64,000 bases of DNA, taken from contig OY759599.1 in the NCBI GenBank assembly GCA_963662465.1, positions 1,440,001 to 1,504,000 on the forward strand, in the 5' to 3' direction. This DNA is from Desulfatiglandales bacterium (GTDB lineage: Bacteria > Desulfobacterota > DSM-4660 > Desulfatiglandales > Desulfatiglandaceae). Made by a program: the position numbers. This document shows positions 39,001 through 45,000 of this stretch, in pieces (within the stretch, counting starts at the first letter, position 1; the number at the start of each line of letters is the position of its first letter).

Positions 39001-42000
39001 GGATTTGCCGATACCCGCCGGACCCGTCACCAACACCATTTTGCAGGCGCCCCGGCTTACCTCGTCAAAACCTGACAACAGGGTGTTGATTTCAGCTTCC
39101 CGGCCATAGAGTTTTTGCGGAATCCGAAGCCTGTCCGAGATATCCTTTTGCCCGATTTCAAAGGGCTCTATTTTCCCTGAACCTTCGAGCCTGTCCAGGC
39201 ATTGCCGCAAATCGTGCTGAATCCCAAAGGCCCCCTGATAGCGGTCTTCCGCATCCTTTGCCATGAGCTTCAGGATGATATCCGATAGGACCGGTGGGAT
39301 TGCGGCGTTGATTTTATGCGGCGGTTCAGGCATCAATGCCAGATGGGCATGCACCAGTTCAATGGGTTCCGTGGACAGGAAAGGCAGTCGGCCGGTGAAC
39401 AATTCGTAGAGCGTTACACCAAAGGAATAGAAGTCCGTTCGCCAGTCCACCAGGCGGTTCATGCGGCCGGTTTGTTCCGGGGACATGTAGGGCAGGGTGG
39501 CCGTCATCAGCATGGAACGTTCGACGGTGGGGGTTTCCCGGGAGATGATACTGGCCGAGCTGAAATCCATCAGTTTCAGGACGCCGGTTTCAGGGTTATA
39601 GAGGATGTTGGAAGGTTTGATATCTTTGTGGATGATGTGCGCCTGATAGATTTCGCCTAACGCTGATGCGGTTTTGACGGCGATCTCTAAAAACTGATCA
39701 ACTTTCAAGGCCTCTGATTTTTGCGGGGTTTTAAGATCAGCGCCGCCGGAGTCCTCCAATACCAGGTAGGGCCGGTGGTCATGCATGATGAGATCCATCA
39801 CTTTAACTACACCTTCTAACCCATTGGCTTTAAAGGTCTTCAGAACATTATATTCATGGCTGTAGCGTGCCGTTTCATGGGGAGAGGGGTGGGCGCTTGC
39901 GGTGGTTTTCAGGATAACCGGTTGGTTGTCATCGGTGTTTACGGCACGATAGACGTGGGTGTTGGCACCTTGGTATAGGGTGTCAGTAATGTCAAAATCC
40001 TTGAACTCGGTCATGTTCAGCTCCGTGTTTGAGGTCGTCCGTTTTTTTTAAGATGCAAGCGTTTTGAACACGATTCACAGGATTTAACAAGATGAACAGG
40101 ATTAGAAGATGACGTCCCGGCAATTTTCTTATTGTCATGGGGAAACCTTCTTGTTTGCGGTCTATCGGCGAAGAGTATAATCCTGTCCATCATCATAATC
40201 TTTTAAATCGTGTTCAAACAGCGCCCCGTTCATGATGCAATCCAGCTTCGTTGTTCCTCCCCGTTCTGAACACGATTCACAGGATTTAACACGATGAACA
40301 GGATTAGAAGATGAGGTCCCGACAATTTTCTTATTGTCATGGGGAAACCTTCTTGTTTGCGGTCTATCGGCGAAGAGTATAATCCTGTCCATCATCATAA
40401 TCTTTTAAATCGTGTTCAAACAGCGCCCCGTTCATGATGCAATCCAGCTTCGTTGTTCCTCCCCATTCTGAACACGATTCACAGGATTAAATACGATGAA
40501 CAGGATTAGAAGATGAGGTCCCGACAATTTTCTTATTGTCATGGGGAAACCTTCTTGTTTGCGGTCTATCGGCGAAGAGTATAATCCTGTCTATCATCAT
40601 AATCTTTTAAATCGTGTTCAAACAGCCTCCCCGTTCATGATGCCATCCAGCTTCGTTGTTCCTCCCCATTCTGAACACGATTCACAGGATTTAACACGAT
40701 GAACAGGATTAGAAGATGAGGTCCCGACAATTTTCTTATTGTCATGGAGAAACCTTCTTGTTTGCGGTCTATCGGCGAAGAGTATAATCCTGTCCATCAT
40801 CATAATCTTTTAAATCGTGTTCAAACAGCCTCCCCGTTCATGATGCCATCCAGCTTCGTTGTTCCTCCCCATTCTGAACACGATTCACAGGATTTAACAC
40901 GATGAACAGGATTAGAAGATGAGGTCCCGACAATTTTCTTATTGTCATGGGGAAACCTTCTTGTTTGCGGTCTATCGGCGAAGAGTATAATCCTGTCTAT
41001 CATCATAATCTTTTAAATCGTGTTCAAACAGCCTCCCCGTTCATGATGCCATCCAGCTTCGTTGTTCCTCCCCATTCTGAACACGATTCACAGGATTTAA
41101 CACGATGAACAGGATTAGAAGATGAGGTCCCGACAATTTTCTTATTGTCATGGGGAAACCTTCTTGTTTGCGGTCTATCGGCGAAGAGTATAATCCTGTC
41201 TATCATCATAATCTTTTAAATCGTGTTCAAACAGCCTCCCCGTACGATGAACAGGATTAGAAGATGAGGTCCCGACAATTTTCTTAGATGCCATCCAGCT
41301 TCGTTGTTCCTCCCCATCTTGAACACGATTCACAGGATTAAATACGATGAACAGGATTAGAAGATGAGGTCCCGACAATTTTCTTATTGTCATGGGGAAA
41401 CCTTCTTGTTTGCGGTCTATCGGCGAAGAGTATAATCCTGTCTATCATCATAATCTTTTAAATCGTGTTCAAACAGCCTCCCCGTTCATGATGCCATCCA
41501 GCTTCGTTGTTCCTCCCCATTCTGAACACGATTCACAGGATTTAACACGATGAACAGGATTAGAAGATGAGGTCCCGACAATTTTCTTATTGTCATGGGG
41601 AAACCTTCTTGTTTGCGGTCTATCGGCGAAGAGTATAATCCTGTCTATCATCATAATCTTTTAAATCGTGTTCAAACAGCGCCCCGTTCATGATGCTATC
41701 CAGCTTCGTTGTTCCTCCCCATTCTGAACACGATTCACAGGATTTAACACGATGAACAGGATTAGAAGATGAGGTCCCGACAATTTTCTTATTGTCATGG
41801 GGAAACCTTCTTGTTTGCGGTCTATCGGCGAAGAGTATAATCCTGTCCATCATCATAATCTTTTAAATCGTGTTCAAACAGCGCCCCGTTCATGATGCTA
41901 TCCAGTTCGTTGTTTCTCCCCATTCTGAACACGATTCACAGGATTAAATACGATGAACAGGATTAGAAGATGAGGTCCCGACAATTTTCTTATTGTCATG

Positions 42001-45000
42001 GGGAAACCTTCTTGTTTGCGGTCTATCGGCGAAGAGTATAATCCTGTCCATCATCATAATCTTTTAAATCGTGTTCAAACAGCCTCCCCGTTCATGATGC
42101 CATCCAGCTTCGTTGTTCCTCCCCATCTTGAACACGATTCACAGGATTAAATACGATGAACAGGATTAGAAGATGAGGTCCCGACAATTTTCTTATTGTC
42201 ATGGGGAAACCTTCTTGTTTGCGGTCTATCGGCGAAGAGTATAATCCTGTCCATCATCATAATCTTTTAAATCGTGTTCAAACAGCGCCCCGTTCATGAT
42301 GCCATCCAGCTTCGTTGTTCCTCCCCATCTTGAACACGATTCACAGGATTTAACACGATGAACAGGATTAGAAGATGAGGTCCCGACAATTTTCTTATTG
42401 TCATGGGGAAACCTTCTTGTTTGCGGTCTATCGGCGAAGAGTATAATCCTGTCTATCATCATAATCTTTTAAATCGTGTTCAAACAGCCTCCCCGTTCAT
42501 GATGCCATCCAGCTTCGTTGTTCCTCCCCGTTTTGAACACGATTCACAGGATTAAATACGATGAACAGGATTAGAAGACGGCGTCCCAACAAGTTTCTTG
42601 TTGTAAAGCCGTTTAAATTCAAGGCTCCGTCCTCCGAAATTCATCAACAATCCATCGGAAATTCCATAGGCTTCCAGATAATTGATAGCCTGTGCCTTGT
42701 GAGCATCTTGCAGTTTTTCCACAGCTTTCAATTCAACCATCACACGATGGTCAACAAAAAAATCGACCCTTCTCGTTCCGATTTGTTTATTGCGATAAAA
42801 TATCGGCATTTCCTTTTCACGCGCAAAGGATAACCCCTGAAAAGTCATTTCAATCGCCAGGGCGCGTTGATAAATCACCTCTTGGAATCCATTGCCGAGC
42901 GAACTGTGAACCTTCATCGCGCAACCGATGACCACATGCGTCAATTCGTTAATCCCGTCACTCGTCATGGTGAGACCTTTTTGTTTGCGGTTTATTGGTC
43001 AATGGTAATCCTGTCTGTCATTATAATCTTTAAAATCGTATTCAAACAGCATAATTTATACCTTTTCAAATTGAAAAGAAATTGCAAAATTCAAAACGAT
43101 CGTCAGGTGTAAAATGAAAAGGACCATGGAAAAGGTGATGACCTGCTTTTTACCGTATCTGTGTAGCAAGAAACCAAAGACGATCCAACAGATGTCCATT
43201 GACTTCAACCTCGCCTTGCATTACGGTATGTAATACGGAGGGGATAAAATGATCACACTAAGATTAGAAGAAAAATTAGAGCAAGATATAAATAATACAG
43301 CGAAAAACTTGGGACTGACAAAATCCGAACTGATTCGCCAAAGCATCCATGACTATCTTCAGAAGCTTCAAAAACCAAATGCGTGGGAGTTAGGCGAAGA
43401 TTTGTTTGGTAAATACTCAAGCGGCCTTGGAAATTTGTCGGAAAACCGGAAAGAGCTGATGAAAGAAAAAATAAAGGCTAAAGGAAAATGAAAAAAATCC
43501 TCATAGATTCCGGTCCGTTAATTGCCTTGTTTGATGCATCGGATAAATATTATCATAAAACAGTTAATTTTATACAATCAAATAAATATCCGCTTGTTAC
43601 AACGCTTGCATCAATCACGGAAACGCTCCACTTGTTGGACTTTAATCGAAATGCACAGATAGATTTCCTCGTGTGGATTGATAAAGGGGCCATTGAAATT
43701 CAACATATTGACAGCAGTGATTTTGGAAGACTCAAAGAATTAACTGAAAAGTATCGGGATTTGCCAATGGATTTTGCGGATGCTTGTCTGCTATATCTTG
43801 CGGAAAAACAGAGCCTGAACACCATTGCAACGATTGATCGGGATTTTACAATTTATCGAATAGGTGGTAAAAAGAAATTCAAGGTTGTTCTTTCTTAAAC
43901 AGAACGGAAGATGATTGAAACCAGGGTGAAACCAGAGGCTGCTGGGTGAATCACACAATAAGGGAGGAAGCAATGGAACTGAAAGACTATTTTGAGGGTA
44001 CGAAAGGGAAGGGCATGCTGGCAACGGCGGATAAGGAGGGGACGGTGGATGTGGCGGTTTATGCCAAGCCTCACTTCGTGGAAGACGGCAACGTCGCATT
44101 TATCATGGCGGACCGTCTGACCCACCACAATCTGCAAAGCAACGACAGCGCCGCCTACCTGTTCCTGGAAGAGGACATGGGTTACAAGGGAAAGCGGCTT
44201 TATCTCACGAAGGTGCGGGAAGAGCAGGACACCGAACTGCTGTATACCCTGCGGAATCGGAAATTTTCTTCGGAAAAGGAAGAGGGCAAGCCCCGATTTC
44301 TGGTTTTTTTTAAGATCGACAAGGTGTTGCCGTTGATTGGCCCGGGGAGGGATGAAACTGCTTTGGCATAACCGGCCATGAAGGGATGCGGTTGGTGTTT
44401 TTTGCTATAAAAATAAACATCTTAAGGTTTTAGGAGAGTTGACCATGCGCATTTTTATGACTGGCGGCACGGGTTTTGTGGGATCGGCGCTTACGAAAAA
44501 TTTGACGGAGCAGGGGCATTCCGTAACCCTGTTAACGCGAAAGATTCGAAAGAGCACTGCTACCCTGCCTTCCGGCGTTTCCATGGTGGAGGGAAACCCC
44601 ACGGAACCGGGACCCTGGCAGGAAACCCTGGCGGATCACGAGGTCGTCGTCAACCTGGCCGGGGCCTCCATTTTCAGGCGTTGGACCCGGGATGAAAAGC
44701 GCCGCATCCGCGACACTCGTATTCAGACCACCACCAACCTGGTAAACGCTCTTGAGCGTCGAAAAGGCATGAAAACCACCCTTCTGAGTACTTCGGCGGT
44801 GGGTTACTACGGTTTTCACGGCGATGAAGCGCTGGATGAGAGCCGTCCGCCCGGAAACGATTTTCTGGCGTCAGTGGCCAGGGAGTGGGAGGAAACCGCT
44901 TTAAAAGCGGAAAAGCTGGGGGTAAGGGTCGCCCTGTGCCGTTTCGGCATTGTCCTGGGAGCCGATGGGGGGGCTTTAGGCGAAATGATTCCCATTTTTA

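Follow-up and report, generated by a model that had tools for sequence, protein, structure and literature searches.

Several described systems combine short repeats with a small gene or with gene junctions, and each of them shares some traits with the GxxExxY genes considered here. In Ssn/SRM, a small stand-alone nuclease gene is flanked by its own repeat, which is also dispersed, many cognate pairs are found across phyla and a mobile-unit origin has been proposed (PMC11893778). The RAYT/REP/REPIN system is characterized by cognate flanking repeats, gene-less inverted doublets with a variable spacer, tandem clusters and long persistence (bioRxiv 10.1101/2021.07.10.451892). Insertion sequences (IS) and MITEs have terminal inverted repeats around one gene and internally deleted copies (PMC3184786), while the MIRU of mycobacteria (PMC3184786) and the TAACTGA repeats of Beggiatoaceae (PMC4679880) lie at operon junctions with ends overlapping stop and start codons. 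In the S23p/PF05635 intervening sequences of 23S rRNA, a small ORF is carried in a terminal stem with short repeats (PMC4990558), and the PF05635 genes of the genome studied here share this layout. PF13366, the family of the GxxExxY proteins, is tabulated as of function unknown (PMC3424549). In the literature searched, which comprised main texts with few subscription journals among them, neither a description of GxxExxY-associated repeats nor a mention of TIGR04256 was found.

The window is a stretch of 64,000 nucleotides from a Desulfatiglandales bacterium (assembly GCA_963662465.1, contig OY759599.1, positions 1,440,001 to 1,504,000), in which a tandem array adjoins a complete GxxExxY cassette (Table 1). 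As the genome-wide survey's note had proposed, the 203-bp array unit consists of the two ends of this cassette, to which our analysis adds the deletion of the gene and the spacer between units; the retained 3' end of the gene corresponds to its last ~23 codons, and units and cassette ends are 86.5% identical over 156 columns. The units measure 201-203 bp (one 242) with a mean pairwise identity of 97.4% (minimum 93.6%), and variant sites are shuffled among them, all four combinations of two sites being present (4/4/2/2). In two public read sets from the same sample, depth on the array contig was 317 and 327, compared with 37 and 42 for the single-copy flank, and the array is therefore multi-copy in the reads; the exact number of 12 copies given by the survey is an assembly figure, as no contig from the reads spans the array. 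An assembly artefact was considered and rejected, given this ~8-fold depth and the presence in relatives of 1-3 units at the same place. In the full cassette, the right arm overlaps the last codons and the stop of the gene. A second full-length gene of this genome, at a different site (contig position 6955020), is 92% identical to the window gene, and the common DNA of the two cassettes runs tip to tip only, ending on the left at 43046. The single gene-less copy and the array bracket a 7.5-kb segment as direct repeats; in the relatives G004 and G010 this segment is in tandem, with gene-less copies at the joints. The same single copy lies where synteny breaks, behind the gene for glutamyl-tRNA synthetase. 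The survey had also allowed that the repeats might be promoters or terminators, an idea that found no backing in window 42300-43300 (0 and 0 predicted).

Table 1. Features of the GxxExxY locus and its surroundings (positions within the window).
Feature	Position	Strand	Content or evidence
Tandem array, 12.3 copies, period 203 bp	40065-42604		Adjacent to the full cassette
12 tandem gene-less units	40063..42532	-	Left arm, leader, ATG, gene 3' end and right arm, ~155 bp each; 47-bp spacer between
GxxExxY gene, 138 aa	42552..42968	-	PF13366/TIGR04256 match, PD-(D/E)XK residues, structure model
Left (upstream) arm of full cassette	43006..43046	-	Four GAT-core units, 9-bp spacing; outer tip 43046
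Right arm of full cassette	42533..42573	+	Inverted relative to left arm; unit spacing 9/10/9 bp
Templated patch	41243..41285	+	43-bp copy of inner right arm in place of 4 bp of one spacer
Single gene-less copy, window family	32483..32635	-	Same family as the array units
Host genes between direct copies	32648..40014	-	The two genes of the next rows
DUF3369/adenylate-cyclase-domain gene	32648-34327	-	Within segment between direct copies
Kinase-AAA-GAF-HATPase gene, 1800 aa	34612-40014	-	Within segment between direct copies
RHH + PIN toxin-antitoxin pair	43249..43898	+	Adjoins left arm; context, outside cassette

The window protein matches PF13366 (E 6e-39, 133.5 bits, cut-off 22), its sole Pfam match, and TIGR04256 (E 5e-40, 136.5 bits, cut-off 35). 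Its predicted structure (pLDDT 90.8) has the restriction-like PD-(D/E)XK fold, whose core is also that of Cas4 (SSO0001), the BpuSI nuclease domain and lambda exonuclease (PDB), with E30, D69 and E79-x-K81 as the putative active site of such a nuclease, and it also has Q93xxxY97. E30, D69, E79 and K81 are invariant across 139 sequences; all four are kept in 97/97 single-domain representatives, and 52 of 53 two-domain fusions have exactly one intact site. The best structural matches are 3s1s (Z 8.2, rmsd 2.9, 95 aligned), a Z near 8 that may reflect the common fold alone, and in Foldseek 4ic1 (E 1.4e-3), and no sequence-level relatives were found among solved structures. A homodimer prediction scored 0.00 and was counted neither for nor against a dimer. 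When the family is clustered at 50%, ~20,700 representatives remain (E up to 1e-10), and the gene is present in 51 of the 151 genomes sampled from this phylum; 50,697 phage records gave no match, 72,556 plasmids gave 8 and viral contigs 4 loci.

In this genome there are 12 PF13366 matches, eight full-length and four partial. An upstream/downstream similarity of at least 28 was found at all eight full-length genes and at one of the partial ones, against 23 of 800 control ORFs; the result of the survey for its own genes is thus recovered, but with a higher background than the 8 of 800 obtained under the earlier settings. The ends of the window family have 32 left-pattern and 27 right-pattern matches genome-wide (reversed-genome control 0), and seven motif patterns gave 57, 40, 21, 40, 4, 12 and 22 matches, with 0-1 in the reversed genome as before; the six locus counts of the survey were not reproduced, the new patterns giving others. 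Gene-less copies are indeed present, as had been claimed, but rather than being evenly dispersed, 65 of the 124 repeat clusters fall in 5 of 82 100-kb bins. Among the genomes compared, at least two motif copies occur in 17 of 50 with the gene and in 6 of 100 without it, kin not being independent, and the motif persists where no gene was detected, for example in G059 with 13 matches. The survey had named spread of the repeats by another enzyme as a refutation. This is true of one family, the CATGAAG-type doublets, the only ones within IS4 ends, which sit inside IS4 MITEs with their own ends and 10-bp target duplications, but none of the 12 PF13366 matches carries this motif. Restriction-modification genes make up 34 of 60 sampled neighbours in the closest clade versus 4 of 90 in the broad set; these samples were drawn from 88 and 193 neighbours, respectively. 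Four-helix-bundle (PF05635) genes, for which a like pattern had been reported, do have the gene-between-inverted-arrays layout in 7 of 10 loci scored, with 7-bp tandem arrays; these genes have no known nuclease activity.

The claim that GxxExxY genes are flanked by their own repeats is borne out well beyond this genome. In more than 15 phyla, cognate flank matches, inverted or direct, were found at 127 of 140 GxxExxY genes versus 9 of 210 neighbouring ORFs (inverted matches, 114 of 140 versus 2 of 210), mismatched, non-cognate flank pairs reaching the score mark in 7.4%; in the closest clade, 59 of the 70 testable loci (of 80) have a flank match. The arms are non-palindromic arrays of 3-4 sites with a sharp tip. 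A cassette measures about 470 bp, with a range of 413-614. Of 216 unit spacings in 65 cassettes, 141 are 9 and 61 are 10, and arm symmetry stops 1-4 nt outside the first unit. The survey's three units of ~9 bp are therefore right as to the spacing and within the range of sites, but the window family has four per arm. By pattern, the arms of the 140 genes are plain inward in 55, outward in 10, direct in 15, one-sided in 21 and unclassified in 39. At least ten repeat classes can be distinguished, requiring 21 changes on the protein tree against a shuffled mean of 67.4 (minimum 61), while phylum requires 44 against 69.7; repeat class tracks the protein tree, a pattern that simple linkage would produce as well. 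At one motif base, G accompanies Thr10 and A accompanies any other residue in 73 of 83 cases (10 exceptions), an association that on independent pairs is not significant (median p 0.125) and to which 3 of 52 closest-clade loci do not conform. An arm taken singly shows no folding (7 strands from 4 cassettes, z 0.13 to 1.53, 0/7 below 0). The left tip overlaps the upstream stop in 16 of 78 cases versus 1 of 82 in the symmetric control, and in the closest clade an ATG lies at +1 or +2 of the right tip in 20 of 52.

Gain and replacement can be followed at one gene junction in relatives of the L132 genome, where 6 of 14 loci are empty, 7 have the gene in cassettes of two repeat types (5 and 2) and 1 has a gene-less copy. 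Occupancy takes 3 changes on the host tree, and a leftover arm of the other repeat type lies beside 5 loci. In the empty loci -1 to +6 bp separate the two stops; these sites come from species ~70% identical and the joints are therefore approximate. The cassette that the survey had seen in a beta-CASP-type gene exists, with bounds at 7091602-7092130 instead of 7091609-7092127 and a perfect inverted repeat of 26 bp instead of 10-bp perfect ends. It holds a second nested left arm and the 5' start of another GxxExxY gene, and its 529 bp stand in place of ~740 bp of the host gene, which is intact in G007. An extension of the inverted repeat into host DNA, prompted by this case, is not general (-8 to -5, p 0.09; -20 to -9, p 0.84). 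Target duplication was missing in the survey, and so it is here: direct repeats show no excess in 62 cassettes, a shuffled null being matched for 3 bp and more, and none is consistent in 12 gene-less copies of the window family. The 2-bp signal (21 versus 6.8) comes wholly from palindromic dinucleotides, non-palindromic tip dinucleotides being duplicated in 0 of 36, so that a 2-bp palindromic duplication (AT/TA) at 21 of 62 cassettes is possible. No near-identical full cassettes were found at unrelated sites, the closest pair having 92% protein identity, and at least 8 of the 55 close pairs listed share their flanks at 72-95% protein identity, therefore indicating long vertical persistence. 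A flank search with 124 clusters for empty sites within the genome returned only IS4-MITE cases and one in-frame 111-bp insert, and for seven cassettes or fragments from same-genus genomes no collinear empty site was found in G000. A cognate gene-repeat partnership across phyla, gene-less derivatives and presence or absence at orthologous junctions are supported by these data.

How the anatomy of the cassette, the intact active site, the cognate arms, the sharp tips without target duplication, the gain at empty junctions, the type replacement and the gene-less and single-arm derivatives came about is a further question. From sequence, we lean slightly towards a nuclease that would cut at its own arms, with host repair copying or swapping the arm-bounded DNA. 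The selfish cassette would be one GxxExxY gene between two inverted arms, each of 3-4 sites about one helical turn apart, and its protein, probably dimeric, would bind the phased sites in double-stranded DNA and nick or cut near the tip. The PD-(D/E)XK fold hydrolyses strands and does not join them, and therefore host repair would do the copying or swapping, by homologous recombination at existing arms or by short-homology joining at new sites, and the cassette would be inserted with no duplication and often at the cost of adjacent DNA. The copies that survive would be those co-oriented at gene junctions, where operons stay readable because the left tip provides a stop or comes after one and the right tip borders the start that follows. 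The window array would be a gene-less derivative that predates the separation from G004/G010 and grew from 1-3 to 12 units by unequal recombination, and the full cassette would have joined it via its right arm.

It is also conceivable, although unlikely in our judgement, that GxxExxY is a domesticated site-specific nuclease, as Ssn/NTS, which recognises the arms and polices or stimulates recombination where DNA is incoming or variable, as in defence islands and polysaccharide loci, with passive spread of the arms by host recombination, operon transfer or capture by other transposons. Long persistence at fixed loci, the restriction-modification neighbours of the closest clade, the confinement of motif clusters to few islands, the repeat family carried by IS4 MITEs and the direct copies around the amplified 7.5-kb segment and the synteny break would all agree with it, and it has a published precedent (PMC11893778). 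It accounts less well for a single tight junction of housekeeping type having gained cassettes repeatedly and exchanged one type for another, for sharp tips common to unrelated sites and for up to 12 matches per genome, many of them fragments, as in mobile elements; furthermore, PADLOC matched no defence model beyond a marginal Cas4b match in 1 of 5 proteins.

In a cargo model, any ORF enclosed by inverted short-repeat arrays would be moved by some third enzyme or by a host pathway, GxxExxY and four-helix-bundle genes both being passengers and the arms autoregulatory. The like layout of the PF05635 genes, the IS4 example and relatives in which the two repeat kinds share a junction and a coding position point that way, but the active site is kept in every one of the 97 single-domain proteins, motif and residue are associated, no common transposase emerged among the best matches of 150 neighbours, and the IS4-moved copies have their own ends and 10-bp duplication, both of which plain cassettes lack; we regard this as improbable. 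Least probable of all is an RNA-level element like an rRNA intervening sequence, with arms that, selected as RNA stems, would base-pair in the transcript and hide the ORF or lead to its excision via RNase III. In its favour, folding is seen for the gene-less unit (z -5.86) and a single stem closes the full cassette (z -4.05), paired arms agree at spacer positions more than class-mates do (65 cassettes), tRNA splicing endonucleases are among the weak fold matches, and a small ORF, heptamer repeats and a terminal stem are also found in the Coxiella IVS (PMC4990558). Against this, of 483 mismatches 98 are G-U-compatible in the sense and 98 in the antisense reading (287 are transversions), without strand bias, direct, outward and solo arms are common, the units of one arm have cores conserved at the sequence level and Rfam has no match at the window locus.

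If the reading of nuclease cutting and host repair is extended to the whole family, GxxExxY cassettes would be a class of mobile elements without a strand-transfer enzyme, in which a 125-aa restriction-fold nickase reads helically phased sites and cuts, and host repair pastes, swaps and amplifies at operon junctions. We advance this extension tentatively and below an even chance. Were it true, it would reveal a very large undescribed family of selfish DNA (~20,700 protein clusters, at least ten repeat classes), an apparently undescribed kind spreading without the usual transposon footprint, together with many tiny site-specific nucleases, each with a recognition array legible in the DNA beside its gene. 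For every family member this flanking DNA suggests a candidate substrate, and therefore activity can be tested with one protein and two oligonucleotides, as for Ssn. A nuclease that drives movement would mean that DNA can transpose and leave no transposase footprint; should it not drive movement, the arms still act as recombination substrates, and in this genome they flank both an amplified signalling segment and a rearrangement and accompany a host-gene deletion.

Compared with the systems described so far, the cassettes have the sharp terminal inverted repeats of DDE IS and MITEs, but neither a DDE transposase between the repeats nor a target duplication, and they replace host DNA and earlier cassettes. 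Unlike rRNA intervening sequences, which are located in rRNA genes, the loci lie among protein genes, as in the window, with sites spaced by 9-10 bp in place of contiguous heptamers, a nuclease ORF and no RNA-pairing signature. MIRU have a 4-bp duplication, and the passages describing MIRU and TAACTGA repeats name no cognate enzyme (PMC3184786, PMC4679880). Homing endonuclease elements, which cut the empty allele and convert it, would fit the recurrent gain at a single junction, but that site is used by cassettes of two types and the protein co-varies with its arms rather than with a target. The ShiLan element, an HNH insert in a methylase (PMC11855218), does not fit. The closest precedents are Ssn/SRM and RAYT/REP, of which the former, not named by the survey, is the closer, and the defining features of both fail here. 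Ssn, whose homologues are flanked on both sides in 42% of cases against 91% of bracketed GxxExxY genes, is a GIY-YIG nuclease that cuts single-stranded DNA at a hairpin (PMC11893778), whereas the window protein lacks GIY-YIG features, has the PD-(D/E)XK fold and is accompanied by non-palindromic phased direct sites, single arms not being hairpin repeats of 20-50 nt. The parallel with RAYT/REP drawn by the survey holds for the layout, including the gene-less extragenic doublets, but not for the enzyme, the folding of the repeats or the behaviour of the gene: RAYT is an IS200-derived tyrosine (HUH) transposase, single-copy and vertical, with palindromic REPs (bioRxiv 10.1101/2021.07.10.451892), while GxxExxY genes are multi-copy, cross phyla and change sites, and their doublets are visible internal deletions of the gene.

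Paired repeats accompany GxxExxY genes in bacteria at large. From 150 loci examined, 138 loci of more than 15 phyla, holding 140 full-length GxxExxY genes with 200 nt on either side, were retained, and the two flanks matched in inverted orientation in 114 of the 140 and in inverted or direct orientation in 127, versus 2 and 9 of 210 neighbouring ORFs; 7.4% of mismatched flank pairs reached the same mark. Among the closest metagenome relatives (70 testable of 80), the corresponding counts were 46 and 59. Each arm consists of short sites spaced by 9 or 10 bp in 65 anchored pairs, in which the search patterns account for part of the core identity, and the symmetry between arms ends 1–4 nt beyond the first unit; no folding of single arms was seen. 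The protein tree is tracked better by repeat class than by phylum: for 124 labelled genes (16 were unlabelled), class requires 21 changes versus 67.4 after shuffling, and phylum 44 versus 69.7. Residue 10 (Thr10 versus others) follows a G/A base of the motif in 73 of 83 cases, with exceptions and with too few independent pairs (p 0.125). For one class, two or more copies of the motif are present in 17 of 50 gene-bearing genomes and in 6 of 100 that lack the gene.

The source genome contains 12 PF13366 matches, 8 full-length and 4 partial. With a cut-off score of at least 28, flanks match in all 8 full-length and 1 of the 4 partial genes versus 23 of 800 control ORFs, and each gene has its own motif. 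The genome-wide survey's note, which had described repeat-flanked GxxExxY genes with gene-less copies, is borne out, and the anatomy of the window array agrees with it. Seven motif patterns give 196 matches in 124 clusters (controls 0–1 each), unevenly distributed, with 65 clusters inside 5 of 82 bins that, from their translations, may be read as polysaccharide-type islands. A 529-bp cassette at contig positions 7091602-7092130, with a 26-bp perfect inverted repeat, stands in place of ~740 bp of a host gene that is intact in the relative G007 and that we take, following the survey's label, with which its motifs agree, to be a beta-CASP gene. At ~110328-110438, a comparison with locus L209 reveals an in-frame 111-bp coding insert beginning with a lone arm, missing from the orthologue in the relative G010 and without duplication; another host-gene position carries a lone CGCAGAT arm in G010 (L195) and a different short repeat in the source genome (~112290-112340). 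About half of the dispersed left ends of the window family are preceded by one and the same REP-like sequence and the right ends by a common 35-nt extension (487826, 588974, 1402599, 2295492, 3382744 and others), so these ends spread as mosaics that include another repeat family. Near-identical stretches (39229-54814 / 8092175-8112214; 85785-99700 / 8147491-8159400), located at both contig ends and in the 7.0–7.1 Mb region, are either real duplications or assembly overlap.

Features of the window (window coordinates) and other carriers of the layout (whole-contig coordinates)
Feature	Coordinates	Strand	Remarks
Tandem array	40065-42604		12.3 copies, period 203 bp
GxxExxY gene, 138 aa	42552-42968	-	PF13366 and TIGR04256 matches; adjoins array
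Single gene-less copy, window family	32483-32635		7.5-kb segment between this copy and array
IS4-family element (L212), 1680 bp	59364-61043		10-bp duplications; 7 copies in all
IS4-related MITEs	415818, 1699407, 3462525, 6068762, 6070578, 7034476, 7110166, 7111978, 7891706
PF05635 genes with 7-mer arrays	7112917, 91040, 8149157, 7115799, 6454072, 7124325, 7120682

In each array unit the upstream arm and the leader, as far as the ATG, run straight into the gene's final ~23 codons and the downstream arm; a spacer of 47 bp follows. Because it is only 86.5% identical (156 columns) to the neighbouring cassette ends, the unit is an older derivative rather than a fresh deletion of that copy. Mean identity among units is 97.4%, and each of the four possible pairings at two variant sites is represented, a mark of repeated recombination between units; in one spacer, 4 bp have given way to 43 bp copied from the inner right arm. 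Read depth on the array is ~8-fold in public contigs of one sample, none of which spans it. In G004 and G010, of the same genus, 1–3 units precede orthologous kinase genes, with no GxxExxY gene beside them in the regions compared, and the 7.5-kb segment is itself tandemly repeated. In four relatives different DNA lies behind the glutamyl-tRNA synthetase gene, so the single copy marks a synteny break. The natural end of this gene (window 32426-32445, L347) resembles an arm tip of the closest clade, including in G007, which has no element behind the gene, and might be a target mimic, a single case. Elsewhere in the window lie a lone CATGAAG-type motif (25582-25598, minus strand; contig 1465582) and a 439-aa ORF (22231-23550), whose start presumably resembles a group II intron reverse transcriptase.

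The window protein is modelled with confidence (pLDDT 90.8) and matches PD-(D/E)XK nucleases structurally with modest scores, no sequence relative being found in the PDB. No active-site residue varies among 139 sequences, and, among the best 150 of ~20,700 representatives, the site is kept in all 97 single-domain proteins; the other 53 (P0001-P0038 and others) are two-domain fusions, of which 52 have exactly one intact site and a degenerate other, which suggests a dimer that needs to make a single cut.

Between the window cassette and its 92% paralogue, common DNA ends at the tips, and so it does in a Chloroflexota pair at 77%; other pairs also have flanks in common. Cassettes are co-oriented at junctions: a same-strand upstream stop lies between –60 and +30 of the left tip in 53/78, on the tip itself in 16/78 (control 1/82), and an ATG lies within 60 nt of the right tip in 51/82. 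Within the closest clade, the upstream gene takes its TGA from the tip in 9/45 cases and the tip lies 1–2 nt before an ATG in 20/52; of 60 neighbours sampled there, 34 are restriction-modification genes. The clearest natural test comes from the site where two convergent genes, presumably dhaL/dhaK, meet in relatives of Methylophaga sp. OBS4 (L132): of 14 loci (13/31 genomes), 6 are empty, 5 carry CGCAGAT-type and 2 CACAGAG-type cassettes, and 1 a deleted copy of 216 bp, with a solitary arm of whichever type the locus otherwise lacks kept at 5 loci and 3 changes of occupancy on the host tree. Behind menB in relatives of L137, a Prevotella genome (30 loci; 36/61 genomes with a match), GxxExxY genes of different repeat types directly follow the stop at 2 loci; 1 locus has a gene-less doublet, 2 have what by eye resemble lone arms, and inspection by eye showed no such arm in the remaining menB-menC gaps. 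In L137 itself (2889-3923 and 3983-5029) the menC ORF and the ORF after it both begin with codons that belong to the right arm.

On balance, we slightly favour a reading in which the nuclease would recognise, in double-stranded DNA, the phased sites at the ends of its own cassette and cut near the tips, and host repair would complete the process; this would explain the missing duplications, the replaced DNA, the nested arms and the arrays. That the arms were passively spread around a domesticated Ssn-like nuclease seems unlikely to us. An element acting at the RNA level is very improbable; mismatches between arms are not biased towards G-U, a result that speaks against an mRNA stem under selection.

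No target duplication of at least 3 bp was found in 62 cassettes. Spread by another enzyme, an objection already raised in the survey's note, applies to the CATGAAG family, which has another carrier, IS4: its doublets lie inside 247–513-bp MITEs having 18-bp ends in common with the 1680-bp element, with a perfect 10-bp duplication in 4 of 8 and one mismatch in 1 more; one MITE also carries a second doublet type. A like pattern surrounds four-helix-bundle (PF05635) genes: of 10 loci scored, 7 have the gene between inverted arrays of contiguous 7-mers, with a heptamer particular to each clade. A third-party mobiliser common to both kinds of cassette is improbable. It is possible, though less likely than not, that GxxExxY cassettes form a new class of mobile elements that move without a transposase.

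PF13366 is entered in a table of PMC3424549, and GxxExxY is mentioned in bioRxiv 2021.01.26.428298; no description of its flanking repeats was found in the literature searched, which included the consulted portions of papers on rRNA intervening sequences (PMC4990558), TAACTGA repeats (PMC4679880) and the ShiLan element (PMC11855218). IS/MITE pairs have a transposase and a duplication (PMC3184786), whereas GxxExxY cassettes have neither. Both RAYT/REP (bioRxiv 2021.07.10.451892) and Ssn/SRM (PMC11893778) likewise combine a gene for a small nuclease with repeats that are cognate to it and dispersed. The earlier interpretation is supported in part: there is cognate pairing, and real evidence of gain and replacement at fixed sites. 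The parallel with RAYT/REP extends to the layout only, and GxxExxY cassettes have neither the enzymes nor the hairpins by which RAYT/REP and Ssn/SRM are defined. GxxExxY and its arms belong to the nuclease-plus-cognate-repeat kind, in which theirs is the third fold, with repeats built in another way.
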